A stretch of DNA of 64,000 nt, taken from contig JAJEBU010000101.1 of NCBI GenBank assembly GCA_022822375.1, positions 5,234 to 69,233 on the forward strand. The letters run 5' to 3'. The translations under genes and the position numbers were made by a program. The DNA comes from Dehalococcoidia bacterium. Lineage in GTDB: Bacteria > Chloroflexota > Dehalococcoidia > Bin125. Every line of letters starts with the position of its first letter. Positions within the stretch are counted from its first letter, which is position 1. The notes beneath the pieces are model-generated. The model saw only the letters and a list, made by a program, of their open reading frames with translations. It made no database searches and had not been told where the DNA came from. Below are positions 896 to 63,759 of this stretch, piece after piece.

Positions 896-2824
896 ATGTC
901 GGACTCTGCAAGCATTCCCGATGCTGACATCGCCCGTGCGCTGCAACGCGCCACGGATTGGTTGATCGATCAGCAGGATCCAGCCGGATTCTGGTGGGGC
1001 GAGCTGGAGTCGAACACCTCGATCACCGCTGAGTACCTGTTGTTGACGCACCACCTCGGGATCGCCGACCGGCGCCAATGGGATGGCATCGCGCGCTACT
1101 TGCGCGGTCGGCAGCGTCCCGAGGGCGACTGGGCGCAGTACTCGGATGGTCCAGGCGACGTGTCGACGTCGGTCGAGAGTTACTTTGCGCTCAAGCTGGC
1201 CGGCGACGACCCGGACTCGCCACACATGACGCGGGCGCGAGAGTGGATTTTGGCGCAAGGCGGCATCGTCGAGGCGCGGGTGTTCACGAAGATTTGGCTG
1301 GCGTTGTTCGGCGAGTTCGACTGGGATCGCCTGCCGGCGATGCCACCGTGGATCAATCTGCTGCCGAACTGGCTGCCGATCAATCTGTATGAGTTCGCGA
1401 GTTGGGCGCGGGCGACCATTGTCGGCATCACGGTGATCATGACCTTGCGTCCGACGGCAGCGCTGCCAGCCGGTGCGGGTGTCGGCGAGCTCTGGGTGAA
1501 ACCATCAGATCGACGACGCTTCGCCGTACCGACTCCGAAGAATCTGTTCTCGTCGGCAGGAGCGTTTCTGATCGTCGACAAGCTGCTGCGGTTGCTCGAC
1601 CGCAACCACATTCGGCCATTCGAGAATCGGGCGCTGGCCTTCTCGGAGCGCTGGCTGCTCGACCGACAGGAGGCGGACGGTTGCTGGGGCGGCATTCAAC
1701 CGCCCTGGGTCTACGCGATCCTGGCGCTGCGGGCGATGGGCTACTCGCTGGACCATCCCGTCATCCGACGCGCGCTGGGCGGGTTCGACCGCTTTACCTG
1801 GAAGCGCGACGAGGCGGACGGCGAGCACGTCTGGACGGAGAGTTGCCAATCGCCCGTCTGGGATACGTGCCTGGCGTCTGTCGGGTTGCTGGATGCCGGC
1901 CTCGATCCGCAGCATCCCGCGTTGCAGTCAGCGGCCCGCTGGATGTTGAACGAGCAGGTGCTCGCTGGCGGCGACTGGCAGGTCAAGAATCCGCAGACGC
2001 CGCCGGGCGGCTGGGCGTTCGAGTTTGACAACGATGTCTACCCGGACGTCGACGACACAGCCGTGGTCTTGATGGCGCTCGAACGCATTCCGATGGACGG
2101 CCTGGAGTCGGAGCGGCAGCTGGCATTGGAGCGGGGGCTGCACTGGATGCTCTCGATGCAGTCGTCGAACGGCGGCTGGGGCGCGTTCGACATCGACAAC
2201 GACAAGACGTTTCTGGCGGACATTCCCTTCGCAGACTTCGGAGAGCTGCTCGATCCACCGACGGCCGACGTGACCGCGCACGCTCTGGAGTACATCGGTC
2301 AGCTGGGCTACCGCGGCGAGTATCCGCCGGCCAGCCGCGGGTTGCGCTTCCTCTATGCGCTGCAGGAGCCTGATGGTTCCTGGTGGGGCCGCTGGGGGGT
2401 GAACTATCTCTATGGGTTGGGCGCGGCGCTGCCGGCAATCGAGGCGTTGGGCGAGCCGATGTCGGCCCCGCCGGTCCGGCGAGCAGTCGAGTGGTTGTTC
2501 CGGCACCAGCTCCCCGACGGCGGCTGGGGCGAGTCCTGCAACACCTATCACGATCCGTCGCTGCGCGGTCTGGGGCCGAGTACGCCGTCCCAGACGGCCT
2601 GGGCGCTGATGGCGCTGATCGCCGCCGGGGAAGCGGCGCACGAGTCGGTCGGACGCGGCATTCGCTACCTGATCGATCGGCAGCGCGAGGATGGCACGTG
2701 GGACGAGACGGAGTTCACGGGAACGGGCTTCCCGCGCGACTTCATGATCAACTATCACCTGTATCGGCACTACTTTCCGCTGATGGCGTTGGGACGCTAC
2801 GCGAAGGCGCTGGCGCCGCGCTGA
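896..2824 (+). CDS. shc: Squalene-hopene cyclase
   Basis: 642 aa. The catalytic 'DVDDTAVV' (DxDDTA) motif is present, with multiple QW repeats ('QxxxGxW'-like) and class II terpene cyclase length. It is adjacent to hpnCDE. Confidence 0.95.
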   Translation: MSDSASIPDADIARALQRATDWLIDQQDPAGFWWGELESNTSITAEYLLLTHHLGIADRRQWDGIARYLRGRQRPEGDWAQYSDGPGDVSTSVESYFALKLAGDDPDSPHMTRAREWILAQGGIVEARVFTKIWLALFGEFDWDRLPAMPPWINLLPNWLPINLYEFASWARATIVGITVIMTLRPTAALPAGAGVGELWVKPSDRRRFAVPTPKNLFSSAGAFLIVDKLLRLLDRNHIRPFENRALAFSERWLLDRQEADGCWGGIQPPWVYAILALRAMGYSLDHPVIRRALGGFDRFTWKRDEADGEHVWTESCQSPVWDTCLASVGLLDAGLDPQHPALQSAARWMLNEQVLAGGDWQVKNPQTPPGGWAFEFDNDVYPDVDDTAVVLMALERIPMDGLESERQLALERGLHWMLSMQSSNGGWGAFDIDNDKTFLADIPFADFGELLDPPTADVTAHALEYIGQLGYRGEYPPASRGLRFLYALQEPDGSWWGRWGVNYLYGLGAALPAIEALGEPMSAPPVRRAVEWLFRHQLPDGGWGESCNTYHDPSLRGLGPSTPSQTAWALMALIAAGEAAHESVGRGIRYLIDRQREDGTWDETEFTGTGFPRDFMINYHLYRHYFPLMALGRYAKALAPR

Positions 2825-8100: not shown

Positions 8101-9861
8101 TCAGAGCCCCTGGACGAGTCGGACGTCGCTCGGTTGTCGGGTGATGACGAAGGAGACATATTGCCAGCCGGAAATGGAGGTGTGACTCACGCTTGACGCT
8201 AGCCGGGTCAGGAGGACGAGGCCGAGGTCCTGCAACTCTTCATCGTCGGCCTGCAAGAGGTCGGGCGGCAGGATCGACTCTTCAACATCGCGTACGTCTG
8301 ATCGGTCGGTGACGACGATCTCGATCTCGTCTTCGTTGGCGGTGGCTTCGATCCGAACGGTGCGATCCGCATCGCCGTTCTCGACGATGTGGGTGAACAG
8401 TTCTTCGAGGCATAACACCAAGCGGTTGGACGGGCCGGGCTCCAGGTTGAAGCCGTTGGAGACATCGCCGCCGAAGGCGAGCACCTGCTCCAGCGATGCC
8501 ATCGACGCCTCGCCGCGCCAGCGGTAGCGTCGGCGCGGCAGCATGGCGAAGATCGCGGACACCAGGACGGCGATGACCGAGCCGAGCGCGATGGCGTTGC
8601 CGGTGATCGGCGTGAGCGCGTCGGGGATGTGCTCGAGGAACGGCAGGGCCAACTCGTCGGCGAACTCACCGCTGAATCCGCCCCAGAATCCGAGCGAGAC
8701 GATCAGCGCCGCTCTGGTGTTGAGTCCTGCGTCGACGACGGTCTGCATGCCGACGACGAAGAGCAGCAGCATGGCGACGAACGAGACGCCGCCAACCGCA
8801 GGTCCAGGTAGATCGAGCACGAAGGCGCTGAGGATCGGGAAGAAGGCCATCACGACCATGAGACCGGCGCCCCAGAGTCCGACCCAACGCGATCCGACGC
8901 CGACAACGGGCACCATGCCGATCGGGGAGGAGTAGGTCGTGTTGGGCGTGCTGCAGAACAAGCCGGCGAGCGCGTTACCGACGCCATCGGCGTTCAACGC
9001 GCCACGCACGGCGTCGTAATCGATCCGCCGGAAGTCGCGCAGGGAGACCTTCTGGATGGCGATCGCGTCGCCGACGGTCTCGAACGTGCCGGCCAGGGTG
9101 GCGATCACGAACGCGCCGAGCACGGCGAACGCCTCGCCTGAGACGGGGAATGTGGGCGCCTCCCATTCGCTGATCGGGAAGCCGACGATGGCCGCGTCCC
9201 CGGATTGGCTGAAGGACCAGTCGCCGCTGATCGCGGCGACGATGCAACCGGCGGCCAAGCCCGCGATCGGCGACCAGAGTCGGTAGCGGGCGGGCGCGAC
9301 GACCATCATCGTGACCATGACAAGAACGGAGACGCCGCCGATCAGGAGGTACGCCAGCGATCCAGCCCGCTCGGTTCCAGCGCCGTTCCACTGCTGAATC
9401 GTGAGCGGGACGATCGTGACCGCCACGCACATGACCACGACACCGCCGACCGTGGGTGTGAAGACGTTGCGAAAGAAGCGAAAGAAGCGGGCGATCAGCA
9501 TCTCTGTCGGCGCAGCTATCAGGGCCAGCGCGGCGACGAATCCGATACCCGCGAGTTCGATCGCGTCGAAGGTGGCCGCGAAGAATGCGCCCGATGTGCC
9601 CATGAACAGCATGAAGCCGGAGCCGACAGCGCCGATGCGGATCGCCTGCACGGCGGTCGACAGTCCGGCCGTGAGCAATGAGGCTGAGATCAGGAACGCC
9701 GCCTCGCCGGCGGTGATCACGTCGGCCGCCCGCAACAGAATCGGCAGCAAGATCGCGCCGGAGATGACGAACAGGGCGTTCTGCAGTCCGAGCCCAGCGC
9801 CGATCAGCAGGGGAGGGCGCTCGTTGACGTCGTAGCGCAGCGCGTGCCCCTGTTGGCTCAT
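8101..9861 (-). CDS. NCS2-family nucleobase (xanthine/uracil-type) permease fused to a C-terminal GHKL/RsbW-like ATPase domain
   Basis: 586 aa, hydrophobic N-terminal 440 aa with the NCS2 signature '[33 protein letters not shown]'. The C-terminal 140 aa '[14 protein letters not shown]...[12 protein letters not shown]...[16 protein letters not shown]' resembles anti-sigma-factor GHKL domains. Confidence 0.6.
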
Positions 9862-27461: not shown

Positions 27462-28469
27462 ATGGCTACCCCGCTCCGTCAAACGCTTCAAGTCGGCAAG
27501 TACGTGGTCGGTCAACGACTGCGCCGCACGAAGCGCTATCCGCTGGTGCTGATGCTCGAGCCGTTGCTGCAGTGCAACCTGGAGTGTGCGGGCTGCGGCA
27601 AGATTCAGCATCCCACGGATATCCTGCGCCGACGTCTGACGCCGCAGCAGTGCTGGGACGCGGTCGAGGAGTGCGGCGCGCCGGTCGTTGCGATCGCCGG
27701 CGGCGAGCCGTTGATCCATCAGGACATCGTGGAGATCGCGAACGGCTTCACGGATCGCAAGAAGTTCGTCTATCTCTGCACCAACGCGATCCTGCTGGAG
27801 CGCAAACTGGCGGACTTCGAGCCCAACCCGTACCTCACGTTCTCCGTGCATGTCGACGGCTTCGAGCAGGATCACGACGACTCGGTCTGCCGCGACGGTG
27901 TCTGGGAAGTGGCGATCCGCGCGATTGAAGCAGCGAAGGCGCGCGGCTTCCGCGTGACCACGAACAGCACGTTCTTCCTCGGCGCGCAGCCCGAGCGGAT
28001 TCGGATGATGTTCGACAAGCTGATGGAGATCGGCGTCGATGGGCTGATGATCTCACCGGGCTATCCCTACGAGAAGGCGCCCGACCAGGAGCACTTCCTG
28101 GCCCGCAATCAGACGAAAGAACTGTTCCGCGACATCCTGAATGATCCGCCGAAGCACTGGAGCTTCAACCACTCTGAGCTGTTCCTCGATTTCCTGAAGG
28201 GCGAGATCGAATACGACTGCACACCGTGGGGCAATCCGACGTATACGGTCTTCGGCTGGCAGCGTCCGTGCTACCTCATGGACGAGGGCTACGCGGAGAG
28301 CTTCCAGGAGCTGATCGACGAGACCGAATGGGAGAACTACGGCGTGGCTTCGGGGAATCCCAAGTGCGTGGACTGCATGGTCCACTCGGGCTACGAGGCG
28401 TCGGCGGTGATCGACGCGACGACCAACCTCAAGGCGGGCCTGCGCAGCTTCGCTGGTTCGCTTCGCTAG
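27462..28469 (+). CDS. hpnH: Adenosylhopane synthase, hopanoid-associated radical SAM protein HpnH
   Basis: 'RYPLVLMLEPLLQCNLECAGCGKIQHP' is the HpnH N-terminal radical SAM CxxxCxxC motif in its characteristic context. 335 aa. Confidence 0.9.
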   Translation: MATPLRQTLQVGKYVVGQRLRRTKRYPLVLMLEPLLQCNLECAGCGKIQHPTDILRRRLTPQQCWDAVEECGAPVVAIAGGEPLIHQDIVEIANGFTDRKKFVYLCTNAILLERKLADFEPNPYLTFSVHVDGFEQDHDDSVCRDGVWEVAIRAIEAAKARGFRVTTNSTFFLGAQPERIRMMFDKLMEIGVDGLMISPGYPYEKAPDQEHFLARNQTKELFRDILNDPPKHWSFNHSELFLDFLKGEIEYDCTPWGNPTYTVFGWQRPCYLMDEGYAESFQELIDETEWENYGVASGNPKCVDCMVHSGYEASAVIDATTNLKAGLRSFAGSLR

Positions 28470-34218: not shown

Positions 34219-35400
34219 CTACTGACGCGGCAGCTGCAAGCCTCGAGTGGCGATGATGTTGCGCTGAATCTCGCTCGTGCCGGCGGCGATGGTGCTGGGC
34301 ACGCTCGACATGTAGGCGCGGCCGATACGGGCGGCGATCGGGGCGCCGGGGTCATCGGGATCGATCCGCTGGCTGTGCAGACCCATCATGTTGACGCCGA
34401 AGCGCGCCACACGCTGGCCGAGCTCGGATCCGAACATCTTCGACATCGAGGCCTCGTGGTTGGGCACCAGCTCCTGCGACTGCATCCAGACGACGCGGTA
34501 GGAGATGAGTCGCGAGATTTCCGACTCGATCATCAGGTTGGCGAGGCCGTTGCGGACGCCGGGGTCGTCGATCATCTTTGCCCCGCCATGGATGCCAGGG
34601 CGTTCGGAGGCGTACTCGGTCATCAGCTCGACGCTCTTGCGGGAGGTGGCGGACCAGGCGACTCCGGAGCGCTCGAAGTCGAGCAGCGTCGCGGCGACGT
34701 ACCAGCCGCGGTTGTACTCGCCCATCATGTTGGCGGCGGGCACGCGCACGTCGGTGAAGTAGACCTCGTTGAAGCCATGCTCGCCGAGCATGTTGATCAG
34801 CGGCCGCACCTCGATGCCCGGCGTGTTCATGTCGAGCAGGAAGTACGAGATGCCGCGATGCTTGGGCGCCTCAGGATCGGTGCGCGTGAGCACGTGAATC
34901 CAGTCGGCGTGATGGGCGCCAGATGTCCAGATCTTCTGACCGTTGATCACGAAGTCGTCACCATCGCGCACGGCGCGAGTCTGCAATCCGGCGAGGTCGG
35001 AGCCGTTGCCCGGCTCCGAGAATCCCTGCGCCCAGTATGACTCGGCGTTGGCGATGCGGGGGAGGTGCTCTTTGCGCTGCTCTTCGGTGCCGTGAAGCAT
35101 CAGACACGGCCCGACCATCGAGATGCCCTGCCCGCCGGAACCGGGAGCGCCGCGATAGGCAGCTTCCTCGCGGTAGATCATTTGTTGGATGTGGCTCGCG
35201 CCGCGTCCGCCGTACTCCTCGGGCCAGGCCATGGTCAGCCAGCCCTTGGAGGCGGCGCGCTTCTCGAAGGCGCGCTCGGCCTCGAACTGGGAGTCGTCGC
35301 CCGGCTCGTTCGAGCCGGCGGCCGGGACCCAGTTGTTGTCGATGAAGTCCACGACCTCACCGCGGAAGGAATCGTCGGCTTCGGTGAATTTGTAGTCCAA
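34219..35400 (-). CDS. Acyl-CoA dehydrogenase
   Basis: 'DYKFTEADDSFRGEVVDF' N-terminus, 'WTSGAHHADW', 'EVYFTDVRVPAANMMGE' and C-terminal 'IAAGTSEIQRNIIA'. TTG start with GGAG ribosome-binding site at 35400. The longer 713-aa ORF is an unlikely extension. Confidence 0.85.
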   Translation of the reverse strand: MDYKFTEADDSFRGEVVDFIDNNWVPAAGSNEPGDDSQFEAERAFEKRAASKGWLTMAWPEEYGGRGASHIQQMIYREEAAYRGAPGSGGQGISMVGPCLMLHGTEEQRKEHLPRIANAESYWAQGFSEPGNGSDLAGLQTRAVRDGDDFVINGQKIWTSGAHHADWIHVLTRTDPEAPKHRGISYFLLDMNTPGIEVRPLINMLGEHGFNEVYFTDVRVPAANMMGEYNRGWYVAATLLDFERSGVAWSATSRKSVELMTEYASERPGIHGGAKMIDDPGVRNGLANLMIESEISRLISYRVVWMQSQELVPNHEASMSKMFGSELGQRVARFGVNMMGLHSQRIDPDDPGAPIAARIGRAYMSSVPSTIAAGTSEIQRNIIATRGLQLPRQ

Positions 35401-35502
35401 GATCAGCTCCAACCCAATAGCGTGCAAGCGTTGCCAGTATAGCCGCAGCGAGACGGCGTCCCGGTCGGTTGTCGGCACACGGGTCGCCACTACGATGGAT
35501 CG

Positions 35503-36690
35503 ATGGACGCGTGGGACGCGGTCGTGATCGGAGCGGGGCCAGCGGGCGCGAACGCAGCGCGGCGACTGGCGGACGGCGGCGCATCGACGCTGCTGCTGGA
35601 GCAGCAGAGACTCCCGCGCTACAAGGCGTGCGGCGGCGGCGTACCGGCGCGCACGCTGCAACTGCTCGGCGACCTCGACATCTCTGCGGTCAGCGAGGGA
35701 CACGTCGACACGATCGACGTGTCCCGCTTTGGACAGCACCAGTTCCGCAAGACATCCGACCGTCTGCTGGCGTGGATGGTGATGCGCGACCGCTTCGATC
35801 AGTTCCTGACCGAGCGAGCGGCGGCTTCTGGTGCGCAGGTGCGGGACGCAACAGCGGTGCAATCGATCGCGCCGGCCGAGTCGTGCTACGAGATCGAGAC
35901 GCCGACGGGCATCGTCCGCGCCCGCCACGTGGTCGCCGCCGACGGCGCGACCGGACCGACGGCGCGCTGGCTCCAGATTCCGTCTGCCAAAACCCGAAGC
36001 GCCGCCTACGAGGTGGAGGTGGCCGCACCACCCCGCGCGCTGGATCACTGGCGCCGCACGGCCAATGTCGATATCGGTTACCGACCATGGGGCTACGGCT
36101 GGGTGTTCCCGAAGGCCGGCGCGTTGTCGATCGGCGTTGTGACCAGTCCCAGGCATGGCCGCGGCATCCGCAAGCACACCGATCGCTACCTGTCGCGCCT
36201 CGGACTCGCCGAGGCGAGCGTGTTGAACGTGCGGGGGCATCCGATTCGTTATCGGCGTTCGACCAACGAGCCGGTCGCCGCCGAGCGGGCGCTGCTGCTC
36301 GGTGACGCCGCGGGGCTGGCCGACGAGTTCACGGCCGAGGGCATTGCGTATGCCGTGCACTCAGCCAACCTCGCCGCCGCGGCGGTGTTGGCTGACGACC
36401 GTCCCGCCGAGAGCTACACGGCGATGGTCGATGGGGAGATTCAGCCGGAACTGAACGCCGCGCGGACGGTGTCGCGGCTCTACTACTGGTGCGTGACGAA
36501 GTGGCCGTGGCTGGCGTTGAGGACATCGAAGCACGTCAACTACCTGTGGCGGGCGTTTTTTCGTGTGATGCGCGGTGAAAGTACGTATCTTGCGGAGTTA
36601 ACACGGTGGATCGGGCCGCGCTTCGCCGGGCGGCTCGGAGCGACGGTCGATGAGCTGGGGAACGAGCGAGATCGACGATGGACGTTCTGA
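35503..36690 (+). CDS. Geranylgeranyl reductase family FAD-dependent oxidoreductase
   Basis: 'WDAVVIGAGPAGANAARRLADGGASTLLLEQ...YKACGGGVP' GGR-family N-terminus. 395 aa. Confidence 0.75.
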   Translation: MDAWDAVVIGAGPAGANAARRLADGGASTLLLEQQRLPRYKACGGGVPARTLQLLGDLDISAVSEGHVDTIDVSRFGQHQFRKTSDRLLAWMVMRDRFDQFLTERAAASGAQVRDATAVQSIAPAESCYEIETPTGIVRARHVVAADGATGPTARWLQIPSAKTRSAAYEVEVAAPPRALDHWRRTANVDIGYRPWGYGWVFPKAGALSIGVVTSPRHGRGIRKHTDRYLSRLGLAEASVLNVRGHPIRYRRSTNEPVAAERALLLGDAAGLADEFTAEGIAYAVHSANLAAAAVLADDRPAESYTAMVDGEIQPELNAARTVSRLYYWCVTKWPWLALRTSKHVNYLWRAFFRVMRGESTYLAELTRWIGPRFAGRLGATVDELGNERDRRWTF

Positions 36691-51520: not shown

Positions 51521-54858
<3,338 letters not shown>

Positions 54859-57045: not shown

Positions 57046-58233
57046 TTAGTCGTCGTCGGCGCCGCCCTGGCGCATCGCTTCGAGCAGCGCGGCGCCGAGG
57101 GATCCGACGACTTCTTCGCTCTCTTCGCCGCCACCGACGGGTTCGTCGCTGGCCTCGGTCTGGACATCGGCCAGCGACGGCAGCTGTTCGCTGTCGTCGA
57201 TGCTGCCCAGGGTGGTGATCGGCTCCTCGGTCGTCGGGGCGAAGACGCCGTCGCGGGCGCGGCGCACGCGGGCATCGTCTTCGTCGATCAAGTCCAACTC
57301 GCGCAGTCTGTCGATCAGTTCGATGTAGGACTTTTCGCCAAAGTTGCGGAGGGTGAGCAGTTCATCGTCGGATCGTTCGAGCACCTGACCGACGAGCATC
57401 AGCCCGCTGCGCTTGAGGCAGTTGTGTGCGCGGACCGAGAGCTGGAGGTCGTCGATCGGCATGTCGTACTGCTCGGGGGTGAGTCCGACGCGTGCGTGGG
57501 CGGGCAGGGCGCGCGGGGCGGTCGGCTGACCGAGGGTTTCGAAGATTTCGAGCTCGGCGCGCAGGCTGCGCGCGGCCGCCTGGACGGCGTCGATGCCGCT
57601 GATCGTGTTGTCGGTCCAGAGTTCGAGCAGCAGATGCTCGTACTGCTCGCCGCTGCCGCCGGAGGCGTCGCCCACGTCGTATTTGACGCGCCGCACCGGG
57701 GTGAAGACGGCGTCGAGCGGGATCGAGCCGATCGCTTCGTCGCCGTTGTTGGATCGGGCGGACGGCTGGAAGCCGTACCCGGTTTCGATGCCCATGGTGA
57801 CGTCGAGTCGTCCATCTTCGCCGTCGAGCGTGGCGAGGTAGAGGTCAGGATTGACGATCTTGTAGTCGCCCGGCACCTGGATGGCGGCGGCAGTGATGGG
57901 ACCGGCGCCGCGCACGTTGAGGTGCATCTCGGCGGTGCGGTCGGCGAGGGCGTGAATGCGAATCTCGCGCAGGTTGAGCAGGAATTGTGTGGTGTCTTCC
58001 TTCATCTGCGGGATCATCGAGAACTCGTGCTGGACCTGGTCGATCTTGACGGAGGTGATGGCGGCGCCGCGAATGCCGCTGAGCAGGACGCGACGGAGCG
58101 CGTTGCCGGCGGTGTGGGCCATGCCGCGGGTGAGCGGCTTCACGAGGATGCGGGCGTAGTCATCCTGCTCTGCCTCGATGATGAGTTCGGGTGATTCGAT
58201 CGCGAGGATCACGGTGCTTGGTCCCTCCAACAC
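57046..58233 (-). CDS. rpoA: DNA-directed RNA polymerase subunit alpha
   Basis: '[16 protein letters not shown]' and the alpha-CTD '[36 protein letters not shown]'. Start is GTG 58233 or a downstream GTG. Acidic C-terminal extension. Confidence 0.9.
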
Positions 58234-60885: not shown

Positions 60886-61536
60886 CTAGCCGCTGACGGC
60901 CTCGAGGGCTGCCAGCAGTTCAGCGCCGACGGCGGCGGGAGGCTGCTCGCCGTTGACGGTCGAGAGTTTGCCTGCGTCGCGGTAGTAGGCAACCAGCGGC
61001 TCGGTCTGATCAGCGTAGACCTGCAGGCGGTTGGCGATCGCTTCGGGCTTGTCGTCGTCGCGCTGGATCATGTTGACAGTGTCGCAGCAGGGGCTGGACT
61101 CGTCAGGCGGGTTGAAGATGTTGTGGAAGACCGATCCGCAGGCGGCGCAGCTGACGCGTCCGCCCAGTCGGCGGGTGATCTCTTCGTTCGAGACATCGAT
61201 CAGGACGGTGACGGCAATTTCGTCGTTCTGGGCCGACAGCGCCTCGTCGAGCGCGCGCGCCTGCTCGACGGTGCGGGGAAAGCCGTCGAAGAGGCAGCCG
61301 GCCTGTGCGTCTGTGCGGCCGATGCGTTCCAGCAGCATGCGGATGGTGACGTCGTCGGGGACGAGTTCGCCACGGTCCATGTAGGTCTTGGCCAGGTTGC
61401 CGAGATCGGTGCCGTTGCGCAGGTGTTCGCGGAACATGTCACCGGTCGAGAGGTGCAGCAAGCCGGTGGCAGCAGCGGTCTGCACGGCCTGGGTGCCCTT
61501 GCCCGCGCCAGGCGGGCCGAGCAGGATGACATACAT
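60886..61536 (-). CDS. adk: Adenylate kinase (with zinc-ribbon lid)
   Basis: '[17 protein letters not shown]' P-loop and lid 'CAACGSVFH...PCCDTV'. ATG at 61536. The longer 357-aa ORF is a false extension. Confidence 0.9.
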
Positions 61537-61559
61537 CGTGGCGTCTCTCTGGATCATGG

Positions 61560-63308
61560 TCAGCGGATGAACCCTTCGTAGTTGCGCATCAACAGCTGCG
61601 CTTCGATCTGGCGCATGGTGTCCAGCGCGACACCGACGACGATGAGCAGACCAGTTGATGAGATCGTGAGCGCGGTGGAGTCTGGGATGAACTCCGTCGC
61701 GAGGAACGGCACGACGGCGACGAAGCCGAGGAATAACGCGCCGGCCCAGGTGATTCTGGCCAGCACGCGGTTGATGTAGTCCTGCGTTGGCCGTCCCGGT
61801 CGGATGCCGGGGATGAAGCCACCTTGCTTCTGCAGGTTCTCGGCCAGGTTCTGCTGCTGGAAGGTGACGAAGGTGTAGAAGAAGGTGAATCCCACGACCA
61901 GCACAAACGACAGCGCCCAGTAGGCCGGACGGCCTGGCGACAGGTTCAACTGCACCCAATCGGCCGCGCGGATCACCCAGCCGGGCCGCTCGCCGAGCGT
62001 TTGGCCCTCTGCGATGTCGGGCGTGAGCGGGTTATCGACCGGGTCTTCGTGCGTCTTGATCTCTGAGATGGCGATGAAGTTGCCGTCGCGGTCTGCAAGA
62101 CGGATCGGGTCCTCGGATATCTCGTTGGCGTCGATCCGCCAAGCATAGATGGTGTCACCGGAGATCGGGTCGGAGGTGGTTTCGACCTGGGTCAGTACGT
62201 TGGAGTCGGAGTTGGAGTTGATTCGGTCGAGCAACGTCTGGAACGTGTCTTCCTCACGGTCCCACTCGATGACGCCTTCGTTGACGACGAACTCGCCCGT
62301 TGCGGAGAGATCGGGCAGGAGGACGGAGAGCGGCTCGTCCACATCGTCGCGCGTGAAGGGCAGTTCAACGGCGACCTGGGTCTGCGCTTCCTCGCCAGCG
62401 GCGCCGGTCACCCAGCCAGCCAGGACGGAGGGGAAGATGATGATCGAGAAGGCGAAGATCAAGGGGATCATGCCGGCCGAGTTCACGCGCAAGGGCACGT
62501 AGGACTGTCCGCTCTGGCGGTACATCCTCCCTCCGCGAAACACCGATCTTGCATATTGGACGGGAATGCGGCGCTGGGCCTCCTGGAAGAAGACGATCAT
62601 GGCGACGAGGGCGATGGCAATCGCGATCACGACCGCGATGCCCGACCAGCCGATGTCGGAGAGTCGGACGGAGTTGAACAGGGTCGGGAAGCTGGCGACG
62701 ATGCCGGCGAAGATGATCAGCGAGATACCGTTGCCGACGCCCTTTTCGGTGATCAGCTCGCCGAGCCAGATGAGGAACATGGTGCCGGCGGTCATGGTGA
62801 GCAGCGCGGAGATCGTGGGCAGCCACTCTTCGGCGCCGAAGCCGATGCCGGTGATGGCGCGGGCGTTCTCGAGCAGCAGCAACTGTCCGTAGCCCTGCAC
62901 CAGCGCCATCGGCACGGCCAGCCAGTATGTGTAGAGCTGGATGCGATTTCGGCCCGATTCACCCTCCTGCGCGAGCGCCTGCAGGCGCGGGATCATGGGC
63001 TGCATCAGGTTCATCACGATCGACGCGGTGATGTACGGATAGACGCCGAGGGCAACGATCGAGAGGTTGTCGAGTCCGCCGCCGGAAAACAGGTTGAGGA
63101 ACCCGAGCACGGGGTTGTTGTCCAGCGCGTTCTCGAGCTGGGTGCGGTTGATATCGGGGATCGGGACGTGAGCGACCAGGCGGAAGACGACCAGCATGGC
63201 CAGCGTGAAGGCGACCTTCTGGCGAACGTCTGGCTGTCGCCAGGCGTCGACCAACGCCTGCAGCAGCTTAGGCCTCGTCGGCGCGGCTGCTGTCTGCGTT
63301 CTCTGCAT
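61560..63308 (-). CDS. secY: Preprotein translocase subunit SecY carrying a ~150-aa insertion in the periplasmic loop between TM7 and TM8
   Basis: Conserved 'VAFTLAMLVVFRLVAHVPIPDIN' (TM1), 'FFYTFVTFQQQNLAENLQKQGGFIPGIRPGRPTQDYI' (TM8-C5). About 150 hydrophilic residues ('TGAAGEEAQTQ...NLSPGRPAYW') lie between TM7 and TM8. Start at 'MQRTQTAAAP' with GAGGTG ribosome-binding site. Confidence 0.85.
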   Translation of the reverse strand: MQRTQTAAAPTRPKLLQALVDAWRQPDVRQKVAFTLAMLVVFRLVAHVPIPDINRTQLENALDNNPVLGFLNLFSGGGLDNLSIVALGVYPYITASIVMNLMQPMIPRLQALAQEGESGRNRIQLYTYWLAVPMALVQGYGQLLLLENARAITGIGFGAEEWLPTISALLTMTAGTMFLIWLGELITEKGVGNGISLIIFAGIVASFPTLFNSVRLSDIGWSGIAVVIAIAIALVAMIVFFQEAQRRIPVQYARSVFRGGRMYRQSGQSYVPLRVNSAGMIPLIFAFSIIIFPSVLAGWVTGAAGEEAQTQVAVELPFTRDDVDEPLSVLLPDLSATGEFVVNEGVIEWDREEDTFQTLLDRINSNSDSNVLTQVETTSDPISGDTIYAWRIDANEISEDPIRLADRDGNFIAISEIKTHEDPVDNPLTPDIAEGQTLGERPGWVIRAADWVQLNLSPGRPAYWALSFVLVVGFTFFYTFVTFQQQNLAENLQKQGGFIPGIRPGRPTQDYINRVLARITWAGALFLGFVAVVPFLATEFIPDSTALTISSTGLLIVVGVALDTMRQIEAQLLMRNYEGFIR

Positions 63309-63759
63309 TGAGCACCTCGACGCTGCCGCCGGCGGCAACGATCTTCGCTTGTGCGGCTGGAGAGATTCGTTCGACGCGGACGGTCAGTGACGTGGAGATG
63401 TCGCCGCCCGCCAGGAGCTTGAACCGCTTGGACGCGCGTCGCAGCAGTCCGACGGCGACGAGCGCATCGGCATCGACGGTATCACCGTCGTTGAAGCGGC
63501 GGTCAAGGTCGACGACGTTGACGGCCTGCGTGTCGACGCGGAACGGCGCCGTGAAGCCCTTGCGTCGAGGCAGGGTGCGCATCATCGACATCGCGCCGCC
63601 CTCGAAGACGGAGTTGTAGTCGCGGCCGGAGCGGGAACGCTGGCCTTTGAGCCCGCGCCCTGAGTAGGTGCCCTTGCCCGACGCGTTGCCACGTCCGACG
63701 CGCTTGCGCTTCTTGCGCGAGCCGGCCGGCGGGCTGAGATCGTTCAATCGCAGAACCAT
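63268..63759 (-). CDS. rplO: 50S ribosomal protein L15
   Basis: 'GSRKKRKRVGRGNASGKGTYSGRGLKGQ' L15 signature. C-terminal about 13-aa extension overlaps the secY start. Confidence 0.95.
   Translation of the reverse strand: MVLRLNDLSPPAGSRKKRKRVGRGNASGKGTYSGRGLKGQRSRSGRDYNSVFEGGAMSMMRTLPRRKGFTAPFRVDTQAVNVVDLDRRFNDGDTVDADALVAVGLLRRASKRFKLLAGGDISTSLTVRVERISPAAQAKIVAAGGSVEVLNAENADSSRADEA

Follow-up and report, generated by a model that had tools for sequence, protein, structure and literature searches.

A FliD head-like domain predicted in the TM7–TM8 loop of a housekeeping SecY from Dehalococcoidia

Introduction

Few membrane proteins are as highly conserved as SecY and Sec61, and accessory tasks at the channel exit normally fall to separate proteins, such as SecDF, YidC, PpiD, and BiP. 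The trans-side loops are short in the bacterial SecY structures compared here. In Sec61, the lumenal loop 7 between TM7 and TM8 is required for gating, and earlier work recounted in the same study proposed it as a contact site for BiP (PMC3897919). This loop has at most about 65 residues; the deletion of residues 305–371 also took the lumenal ends of TM7 and TM8 (PMC3897919). FliD (HAP2) carries its head domains as nested insertions. Within FliD, these head units tolerate swapping or replacement by short peptides, and cap function does not depend on them; among the FliD domains, only D1 matters functionally (PMC8533109). Here, we describe a SecY whose TM7–TM8 loop contains a domain that resembles such a FliD head. 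No description of this architecture was found in a literature search covering SecY insertions and Chloroflexi, Flagellin_IN, FliD, and sponge Dehalococcoidia, and we found no prior report of a SecY with a FliD-derived domain.

The secY gene and its canonical core

The window is the whole stretch of DNA that was analyzed (64,000 nucleotides from a Dehalococcoidia bacterium). The gene, its neighbors, and the landmarks of its core are as follows.

61560..63308, minus strand: secY coding sequence, 582 aa (ATG at 63308, stop codon at 61560–61562)
63268..63759, minus strand: rplO (L15), upstream neighbor; 41 nt at its 3′ end overlap the start of secY
60886..61557, minus strand: adk, downstream neighbor; then map, infA, rpsM, and rpsK, a canonical spc/alpha operon context
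62409..62471, minus strand: TM7, the lateral-gate helix (residues 280–300), immediately upstream of the insert
61854..61928, minus strand: TM8 (residues 461–485)
61794..61823, minus strand: C5 motif GGFIPGIRPG in the cytoplasmic loop (residues 496–505)

The gene order rpmD-rplO-secY-adk-map places it at the end of the spc operon of ribosomal proteins. Its product matches PF00344 with 329.9 bits (cut-off 32.2) in two separate stretches and the equivalog TIGR00967 with 353.2 bits (cut-off 253.6), which covers residues 29–577. PF00344 is the only Pfam family found on the full protein; the FliD_N (PF02465) and FliD_C (PF07195) legs were not found. In an alignment to Geobacillus SecY, residues 21–299 pair with 7–284 and residues 451–582 with 293–424, which leaves about 143 residues unmatched between TM7 and TM8. 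The identity to E. coli SecY is 38%. The AlphaFold model takes on ten TM helices and a plug, and Foldseek superimposes the full model on T. thermophilus SecY with a TM-score of 0.77–0.79 (target-normalized). The ten TM segments and the GGFIPGIRPG motif of the original prediction are thereby reproduced, with TM7, TM8, and the motif in the places that it had given them. The hydropathy profile of the insert lacks any TM-grade peak. Judged by sequence, the window gene encodes a housekeeping SecY with an intact canonical core, for which a protein-conducting role is predicted.

The insert resembles a FliD head unit

The insert is located in the extracytoplasmic TM7–TM8 loop and follows directly on TM7, so that it adjoins the lateral-gate helix on the trans side, as originally proposed. 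The connection to the architecture of the cell envelope that the original prediction offered is speculative. Its parts are as follows.

61989..62393, minus strand: net insertion relative to insert-less Dehalococcoidia SecY (residues 306–440, 135 aa; alignment A1)
62064..62381, minus strand: globular α/β part with a FliD-head-like fold (residues 310–415)
62058..62303, minus strand: segment matched to the FliD head unit by hhalign (residues 336–417), with the motifs GxFxVN (338–343), IN (I363 N364, 62217–62222), NV (370–371), and D..GNF (406–411)
61983..62063, minus strand: C-terminal tail or linker (residues 416–442), modeled with low confidence
61944..61979, minus strand: short amphipathic helix WVIRAADWVQLN (residues 444–455), part of the ancestral TM7–TM8 loop; the insert-less SecY has the same helix

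A large acidic insertion between TM7 and TM8 is confirmed, with a net length of 135 aa by alignment to the insert-less Dehalococcoidia SecYs. Its description as a hydrophilic insertion holds for composition (33 D/E versus 8 K/R in residues 301–445) but not for structure: in the AlphaFold model, residues 310–415 form a folded α/β domain of the FliD D2/D3 type, in which antiparallel β-sheets are packed against one helix. A simple low-complexity acidic loop was rejected because the insert takes on this fold.

An HMM built from 35 inserts was searched against 1.84 billion (1.84e9) representative proteins and returned 257 hits, and the non-SecY proteins examined among them were either FliD proteins or giant Flagellin_IN repeat proteins. 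In those FliD matches that were scanned with Pfam, which have the architecture FliD_N + Flagellin_IN + FliD_C, the stretch hit by the insert HMM coincided with PF07196 (in P0150, 249–332 versus 257–306 in Pfam). The comparison of insert and FliD head unit by hhalign gave a probability of 99.3% (E 4.9e-20) with a FliD alignment (A5) that was itself chosen from the insert-HMM matches and in which 4 of the 18 sequences (P0143, P0150, P0177, and P0203) are FliD proteins confirmed by Pfam. BLASTP aligned the insert to the Dehalococcoidia FliD P0143 with 34% identity over 82 aa (E 1e-10). The window insert alone yielded no PF07196 match in Pfam even at E ≤ 10, and none of the 35 clade inserts, scanned singly, matched PF07196 or any other family at E ≤ 1. 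As no single insert reaches the PF07196 threshold, family membership rests on the profile and fold evidence. A PDB sequence search with the insert profile returned two insignificant matches only.

I363 and N364 are invariant in 35 of 35 inserts, and G338, N343, V371, D406, and G409, which align to the FliD consensus, are likewise invariant. Within the globular part, most invariant residues correspond to the FliD family consensus, the exceptions being P317, F318, and W390. Within the tail, which pairs with the FliD “y.i..vnGGQtl” strand where FliD_C begins, T429, E434-G435-Q436, G439, and R441 are invariant and D425 is nearly so. The captured unit is the D2/D3-type Flagellin_IN β-domain, which runs from the G-x-F-x-V-N strand via the G-N-F motif to the G-G-Q strand. 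After capture, the fold-determining residues were kept, the surface changed quickly, and strong acidity was acquired: the net charge ranges from −27 to −7 across the clade (median −20), and the FliD units have a median of −5.

By these profile comparisons the insert is assigned as a FliD-derived domain, and the protein as a whole is not a FliD. The best single-domain match is a Dehalococcoidia FliD that scores 0.7 bit above a Firmicutes FliD, a difference that suggests a donor within the Dehalococcoidia but does not establish it. A search for FliD homologs returned many Chloroflexota FliDs, and none of the best 120 was located on megabase contigs like the carrier chromosomes, which is a weak hint that the carriers lack flagella. 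As natural insertion domains that tolerate swapping, FliD heads plausibly were acceptable to SecY for this very reason.

Distribution of the insert

The insert is present in relatives of the window protein, namely in about 95 protein clusters and in 22 species-level Dehalococcoidia genomes (species representatives), in each case with an intact reading frame. The closest relative belongs to a 90% cluster of 155 members. The original prediction regarded such an insertion as highly unusual, which is borne out by the search of 1.84 billion proteins, where full-length SecY proteins among the top insert-HMM matches fall into one 50%-identity cluster only; the other SecY-derived matches inspected were fragments or frameshifted calls. 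Genomes were scanned for carriers with an alignment of insert tail and TM8 (A4), 80 loci were kept, and their genes were extracted by anchoring on the GIRPG motif. A core-only NJ tree places the carriers in a monophyletic group (50 of 50 bootstraps). We are highly confident that the carriers hold the housekeeping SecY of a monophyletic clade, in whose ancestor a single insertion placed one FliD head unit into the TM7–TM8 loop. The carriers are known solely from metagenome-assembled genomes (MAGs), at least one of which comes from a sponge metagenome series, and the clade is apparently sponge-associated.

The insert is under purifying selection. Among close relatives, dN/dS is about 0.03–0.10 for the insert and 0.02–0.04 for the core; these values are rough because dS is near saturation, and they were read from close pairs only, dS in distant pairs being saturated at about 0.6–1.0. 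The protein sequence of the insert evolves about five times faster than the core (dN), and its identity falls to about 42% where the core holds 82%.

Proposed role and competing explanations

The most likely role of the domain is that of an exit-side module, with a passenger domain and a docking or adhesion scaffold as serious rivals. In our proposal, the domain would be exported to the trans side and hang on the TM7/TM8 lateral-gate hairpin by two linkers, a short one on the N-terminal side and a conserved one of 27 residues (T-x4-EGQ-x2-G-x-R) on the C-terminal side. At the channel exit, it may form a bulky polyanionic hood that acts through bulk and charge and would have no specific binding face. 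Such a hood might shield unfolded chains as they emerge or favor their outward movement (anti-aggregation or anti-backsliding), and/or it might tune gating via the TM7–TM8 hairpin. The site would suit such a role, the equivalent loop 7 of Sec61 being a known gating element (PMC3897919). An action through bulk and charge is preferred over an interface because the insert drops to far lower identity than the core while its net charge stays negative. The idea that the FliD head brought a chaperone activity with it was downgraded: as the heads are dispensable in FliD (PMC8533109), the donor domain contributes no known chaperone activity, and the analogy of a cap at an export-channel exit is weak. 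A steric or electrostatic module tethered to the lateral-gate hairpin is proposed tentatively as the function. The fuller version, in which the FliD head was exapted as an integral part of the translocon that ratchets or shields chains or sets gating, is rather doubtful. For the account taken as a whole, the capture of a FliD head by SecY together with an exit-side hood role, the balance tips slightly in favor.

The fast-evolving surface of the insert fits a passenger domain too. According to this explanation, a fliD fragment without any separate role landed accidentally in a loop of secY that could accept it, and it is kept only because its destabilization or imprecise deletion would harm an essential protein. 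The autonomy and swap tolerance of FliD heads, whose absence does not impair FliD (PMC8533109), agree with it, as do the fast evolution of the insert and the fold-determining appearance of most invariant residues in 310–415 (not of P317, F318, and W390). It has to be set against the observation that no loss of the insert was seen among the roughly 95 clusters and 22 species genomes, at core divergences of up to about 20%, and that the insert length is tightly held (135–148 aa across the clade). The dN/dS of at most 0.1 among close relatives, a directional and conserved shift to acidity that is foreign to the donor family, and the invariant linker motif EGQ..G.R outside the globular fold likewise speak against a mere passenger, which we consider unlikely.

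A scaffold for docking, oligomerization, or adhesion is judged about equally unlikely. Here, the domain would recruit an extracytoplasmic partner (an SecDF/YidC-type factor, a foldase, an S-layer or envelope component, or a host glycan) or self-associate and cluster translocons, much as FliD heads do in the cap plate. The interfaces between FliD heads are plastic and range from tetramer to hexamer, and some bacteria adhere by means of FliD (PMC7316729). The Flagellin_IN unit is also the building block of a giant Tad-locus protein with a C-terminal VWA domain, whose architecture is adhesin-like; the invariant tail motif of the insert could provide a contact site, and the sponge origin of at least one carrier MAG would fit a host-directed scaffold. 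However, the poorly conserved surface argues against a fixed protein–protein interface, a domain of about 105 residues on the cytoplasmic membrane would hardly reach past the envelope, and a net charge near −20 would disfavor self-association unless it is bridged by cations.

Accessory SecY2 systems are found in Firmicutes, and the window protein has weak SecY2 matches in NCBIfam; it could be a paralog that serves particular substrates, with housekeeping left to a canonical SecY elsewhere in the genome. This is very improbable: the SecY2 models stay below their cut-offs (NF009082 with 157 bits against 353, TIGR02920 with 152 bits against 250), the housekeeping equivalog TIGR00967 is passed, the gene occupies the rplO-secY-adk slot of the spc operon, the core dN/dS is about 0.02–0.04, and, as weak evidence, no two of the 80 loci retained in the genome scan share a carrier contig.

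An artificial or removable insert, be it a secY–fliD assembly chimera, a frameshift or indel as feared in the original prediction, or a spliced-out intein or mobile element, has a negligible probability, even though some database entries of the family are broken or chimeric (P0094 and P0097) or frameshifted fragments (P0126, P0127, and P0138), as the identical window protein recurs on at least five contigs, megabase-scale ones included (two of these loci belong to separate ENA assembly records, and one lies on a 2.66 Mb contig), the frame is open in 22 species genomes, GC3 is matched (insert 0.82, core 0.88), and the insert is under purifying selection. Pfam scans of the inserts gave no intein/Hint or transposase match, no related insert copies were found elsewhere in the window or in the scanned loci, and the junctions ..GAAG/EEAQ.. 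and ..TLGE/RPGW.. (slashes mark the boundaries) do not resemble intein splice junctions. Assembly artifact, intein, and SecY2-type paralog were all rejected on the contig recurrence, the Pfam results, the SecY2 scores, and the operon slot.

Significance

A clade with a stable, folded, acidic domain on its gate hairpin represents a natural experiment in the remodeling of the translocon exit side, and its SecY bears on whether trans-side mass or charge affects gating and directionality. The insert also documents how a domain of a flagellar gene was captured by an essential housekeeping gene, and it marks a Dehalococcoidia clade with a sharp synapomorphy. The FliD head emerges as an insertion-tolerant scaffold that could serve for engineered displays on SecY. 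If the proposed hood role is true, no SecY/Sec61 channel with an integral trans-side domain for substrate handling or gating was known before this one, and a module would have been transferred directly in evolution from the flagellar export to the general secretion pathway.

Comparison with known systems

Canonical bacterial SecY (TIGR00967/PF00344; T. thermophilus 5aww and G. thermodenitrificans 5eul) shares with the window protein the ten TMs and plug, the C5 GIRPG motif, and the spc position. The canonical proteins have a total of about 430–455 aa, whereas the window SecY has 582 aa, and their short TM7–TM8 trans loop is replaced by one that holds a folded domain of 135 aa. Geobacillus SecY has about nine residues in the equivalent aligned gap; from the end of helix TM7 to the start of helix TM8, the SecYs of E. 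coli and of the insert-less Dehalococcoidia span roughly 25–30 residues.

No trans-side loop of the eukaryotic channel is larger than loop 7 of Sec61α, which occupies the same topological position as the insert. Loop 7 contains a mini-helix but no independently folded, captured domain, and it shows no homology to the insert. The P1 domain of YidC and the P1 head of SecD are folded trans-side domains of the Sec machinery near the channel exit. Their folds are unrelated, and they are found on separate subunits, whereas the SecY insert is part of the core channel subunit.

The head D2/D3 of FliD (PF07196) shares with the insert its profile, its fold, and the GxFxVN, IN, NV, D..GNF, and GGQ-strand motifs. 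Both domains are extracellular (in SecY by prediction) and nested as insertions, the FliD head naturally so. FliD additionally has FliD_N/FliD_C coiled-coil legs (D0/D1) and two or more units, whereas the SecY insert has no legs and a single unit. Compared to FliD units, the insert is much more acidic (−20 versus −5) and has an extra N-terminal strand with an invariant PF, and it sits in a membrane channel instead of a filament cap.

The giant proteins with tandem Flagellin_IN repeats contain the same domain family as the insert and are extracellular. In one of them (P0121), a TadE/G-like N-terminus is followed by 13 Flagellin_IN units and a C-terminal VWA, and its gene adjoins TadE. Unlike the SecY insert, these units are arranged in tandem, near-neutral, rich in Ser/Thr, and without the FliD-type GGQ tail, and they score lower per domain against the insert than FliD does.

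The secY gene and the position of the insert

The protein encoded here is a SecY on every testable criterion; it contains a part of the flagellar cap protein FliD and is not itself a FliD. It matches PF00344 with 330 bits in two separate stretches and scores 353 bits against the housekeeping equivalog TIGR00967 (cut-off 254). Its main features are as follows.

61560-63308, minus strand: secY ORF, 582 codons from ATG 63308 (the mechanical ORF start is a TTG upstream, at 63338)
Residues 280-300: TM7
Residues 461-485: TM8
Residues 496-505: C5 motif GGFIPGIRPG

The match to Geobacillus SecY breaks exactly between TM7 and TM8 (query 21-299 corresponds to 7-284, query 451-582 to 293-424). The bounds of the insert come from aligning the protein to E. 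coli SecY and to its nearest relatives without the insert, which are 443-454 aa long and 63-68% identical. The extra residues 306-440 (135 aa) directly follow TM7 and precede a short amphipathic helix and an 'SPG' turn ahead of TM8, both of which are found in all aligned SecYs. All ten TM helices and the plug are seen in an AlphaFold2 model built with 48 sequences, which matches T. thermophilus SecY at a target-normalised TM-score of 0.77-0.79. The charged residues are distributed unevenly, with 33 D/E and 8 K/R in residues 301-445 versus 23 D/E and 31 K/R in the remaining protein. The domain lies in the TM7-TM8 loop on the trans side, next to TM7, which forms half of the lateral gate, and is tethered by a linker of ~5-10 residues on its N side and a conserved 27-residue linker on its C side. 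The original prediction had named this site and its trans-side placement, the ten TM segments with the C5 motif, and the acidic character of the insertion, all of which are recovered here.

The last 41 nt of rplO (L15) are also the first 41 nt of secY, read in another frame (63268-63308). The overlap appears real and conserved, because the whole insert clade keeps the MQR(A/T)Q N-terminus.

The insert as a FliD-type head unit

Neither the window insert nor any of 35 clade inserts, searched as single sequences, matches a Pfam family, and none passes the threshold of PF07196 (Flagellin_IN). The insert family is clearly a folded domain. In an insert-only AlphaFold2 model, pLDDT is 91-96 across most of SecY residues 316-375 and 77-87 on to ~415, followed by a low-confidence tail; the topology is beta-(short helix)-beta-beta-alpha-beta-beta-beta-(short helix). 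The prediction of a hydrophilic loop holds insofar as hydropathy reaches TM grade nowhere inside the insert, but the model and the family profile show a folded domain.

An HMM built from the 35 inserts yields 257 matches at E<=1e-3 among 1.84 billion representative proteins. The only full-length SecY among the top matches is the clade's own representative, and the other inspected SecY-derived matches (P0122, P0125-P0127, P0129, P0138) are fragments or frameshifted calls. The fetched non-SecY matches are of two kinds, giant proteins with 6-13 tandem units and many two-copy proteins of 450-800 aa; the exception is P0139, a tandem Thr-rich repeat fragment of different look. In the scanned two-copy proteins, Pfam finds FliD_N, Flagellin_IN, and FliD_C, which identifies them as FliD; P0143, P0150, P0177, and P0203 are confirmed as FliD in this way. 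The stretch matched by the insert HMM coincides with PF07196 in the scanned FliDs (249-332 vs 257-306 in P0150, 234-316 vs 244-289 in P0177). Among the matches listed, the top non-SecY proteins by single-domain score are FliD-sized and carry the unit just upstream of FliD_C. The highest-ranked of these, P0143 (NCBI MCS7002613.1, 'flagellar filament capping protein FliD, partial [Dehalococcoidia bacterium]'), is encoded by a gene that adjoins FlaG and shares 34% identity with the window insert across 82 residues.

When the insert family is compared profile to profile with 18 FliD head units, the probability is 99.3% (E 4.9e-20); the comparison is not fully independent because the units were picked among the insert-HMM matches. 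The motifs G-x-F-x-V-N, the invariant, name-giving I-N (I363 N364), N-V, and I-x-L-x-D-x-x-G-N-F are in register with FliD. Profile, motif, and fold therefore place the insert in the Flagellin_IN/FliD-head family, as a single FliD-type head unit. In several FliDs the alignment extends into the insert tail, and the invariant T...EGQ of SecY falls on the FliD strand 'y-t-I..vn-G-G-Q-t-l' at the start of FliD_C. Because this strand is not shown by the giant repeats read, a fliD gene is the most likely source. A Dehalococcoidia donor is suggested, with a score margin too small to prove it.

The giant family (P0121, P0123, P0124, P0128, P0130-P0137) comprises proteins of 0.9-2.5 kaa with 6-13 tandem FliD-head/Flagellin_IN units, to which Pfam assigns little beyond these repeats. 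P0121 (locus L081, 1472-8830) combines a TadE/G-like N-terminus, a Flagellin_IN array, and a C-terminal VWA domain, is encoded beside TadE, and looks like a Tad-pilus-associated adhesin. Others carry N-terminal 'LGLDxTSPxAxS' repeats.

Distribution and origin

At least five contigs encode exactly this 582-aa protein. The two of these loci that were inspected are from separate ENA assembly records, one being a contig of 2.66 Mb, and both have the gene order rpsE-rpmD-rplO-secY-adk-map-infA-rpsM-rpsK. The closest relative belongs to a 90%-identity cluster of 155 members, and the insert is present in ~95 clusters (559-590 aa, overall identity down to 70%; the count excludes the chimeric entry P0094 at 61%). 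With one genome scanned per GTDB species, the insert turned up in 22 species representatives, all labelled as Dehalococcoidia, Chloroflexota, or Chloroflexi MAGs and many of them complete chromosomes of 2.5-3.6 Mb. All 21 extracted carrier genes are intact (581-584 aa); the remaining locus, L010, was dropped by a motif filter and nonetheless contains the domain. GC3 is similar in insert (0.82) and core (0.88). The indel or frameshift artefact considered at the outset is refuted by these contigs, species, and intact genes, and relatives do carry the insertion; an artefact or an intein, the latter also at odds with the lack of Pfam matches by single insert sequences, is practically ruled out.

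In a neighbor-joining tree of core columns, all 31 insert-bearing SecYs form one clade in 50/50 bootstraps, which points to a single insertion in their common ancestor without later loss within the sample. Full-text literature searches turned up no account of a SecY in which this domain, or a comparable one, is inserted. The search of 1.84 billion proteins for this domain places it, within SecY, in a single 50%-identity cluster, and for this domain 'highly unusual' was an apt description.

Three database entries look irregular. P0094 (570 aa) has a SecY N-terminus of proteobacterial look and the C-terminus of the insert clade, and probably stems from a chimeric contig. In P0097 (779 aa), a partial SecY with the insert is preceded by ~370 unrelated Gly/Ala-rich residues, probably through an error in gene calling. 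P0096 (454 aa, on a 2.1-kb JGI contig) is an insert-less, mosaic-looking SecY. Over the N-terminal half it shares 79-83% identity with the insert clade, but the C-terminal half, TM7-TM8 loop included, is nearest to relatives that lack the insert (77% to P0100). A sister lineage, a recombinant, or a chimeric contig could each account for it.

Evolution since capture

Where the cores are 94-95% identical, the inserts are 57-60% identical, and at 82% core identity the inserts fall to ~42%. Between the closest genomes, dN is 0.06-0.13 in the insert and 0.015-0.04 in the core, and dN/dS is ~0.03-0.10 and 0.02-0.04, respectively, with dS >=0.7 and near saturation. By these ratios, the insert is under purifying selection, several-fold more relaxed than that on the core. 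When secY of loci L001-L022 is compared with the window, dS is already ~0.7-1.0 between genomes with 97% identical SecY cores and no higher in more distant pairs. In this GC3-rich lineage synonymous sites are saturated or capped by composition, and any dN/dS work on it is limited accordingly.

Insert length ranges from 135 to 148 aa across the clade. The invariant residues of the globular part are mostly FliD family consensus, with P317, F318, and W390 outside it. Also outside this set is the tail motif D425..T429....E434-G435-Q436..G439.R441, in which D425 is nearly invariant and the rest invariant. Net charge is -27 to -7 (median -20) versus a median of -5 in FliD-type units (n=58), which makes strong acidity a derived, maintained property. 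Two further trans-side loops are more acidic in the insert clade than in insert-less relatives, via R-to-D/E changes:

Residues 47-89 (window about 63042-63170): loop P1, next to the plug; GGAL-R-NLS becomes GGGL-D/E-NLS
Residues 536-548 (window about 61665-61703): loop P5; the P5-side motif ATRF.-D becomes ATEFIPD

The remainder of the ancestral TM7-TM8 loop is slightly more basic in the insert clade, with conserved arginines gained. These loop changes may reflect co-adaptation to the acidic domain or an overall acidification of the outer face.

Habitat and genome

We take names such as RHO3_bin_68 and COS3_bin_15 to denote MAGs from demosponges, and the OZ records, whose isolate names are UUIDs, look as if they stem from a large symbiosis sequencing effort. 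SB0664_bin_15 is one of the carrier MAGs, and the SB06xx bin series is found among sponge-associated Entoporibacteria genomes (PMC7883664). The bin series and the MAG names together make a putative sponge association of the whole insert clade likely.

The window (GC ~64%) is a Dehalococcoidia chromosome segment with ordinary metabolic and hopanoid-synthesis genes, among them:

896-2824, plus strand: squalene-hopene cyclase (both Pfam domains, E about 1e-150)
27462-28469, plus strand: radical-SAM protein with DUF3463 (Pfam), presumably the HpnH architecture

Together, the two suggest hopanoid synthesis and side-chain extension in this genome. An ORF at 8101-9861 (minus strand, 586 aa) joins a xanthine/uracil-family permease (24-390) to an anti-sigma-factor-kinase-like HATPase_c_2 domain at the C-terminus (452-560), an unusual transporter-kinase fusion. 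Several housekeeping ORFs exceed their Pfam domains in length: RpoA (57046-58233, minus strand; 395 aa, CTD end at 312), an acyl-CoA dehydrogenase (34219-36360, minus strand; N-terminal extension of 325 aa without Pfam assignment), and an AdoHcy hydrolase (51671-53695, plus strand; ~258 N-terminal residues without Pfam assignment, possibly from a start codon called too far upstream).

Possible function

In the flagellar cap, the flat plate is made of FliD heads, whose head-to-head interfaces are plastic (PMC7316729). The leg domain D1 is the sole functionally important domain of FliD, and the heads are dispensable and can be replaced by short peptides or foreign domains (PMC8533109). Dispensable, self-folding, and with adjacent ends, the head is therefore an ideal insertion domain; its dispensability also takes away any presumption that the unit brought chaperone activity. 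Fold, bulk, negative charge, and tether are conserved and the surface changes fast, a pattern that fits a part acting by sterics and electrostatics better than one with a specific binding face.

Our best guess, a tentative one, is a polyanionic hood at the channel exit, which would favour outward movement of emerging chains or shield them, tune the TM7-TM8 gate hairpin, or do both. Two serious rivals, each somewhat less likely, are a tolerated passenger domain and a scaffold for docking, oligomerisation, or adhesion. An accessory SecY2-like role is very improbable given the TIGR00967 score and the ribosomal-protein gene order around secY.

The equivalent loop of Sec61, between TM7 and TM8, is loop 7. 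Loop 7 is the largest lumenal loop of Sec61, and its deletion impairs post-translational import and ERAD; a contact with BiP was proposed in earlier work cited there, and a key role in gating was concluded (PMC3897919).
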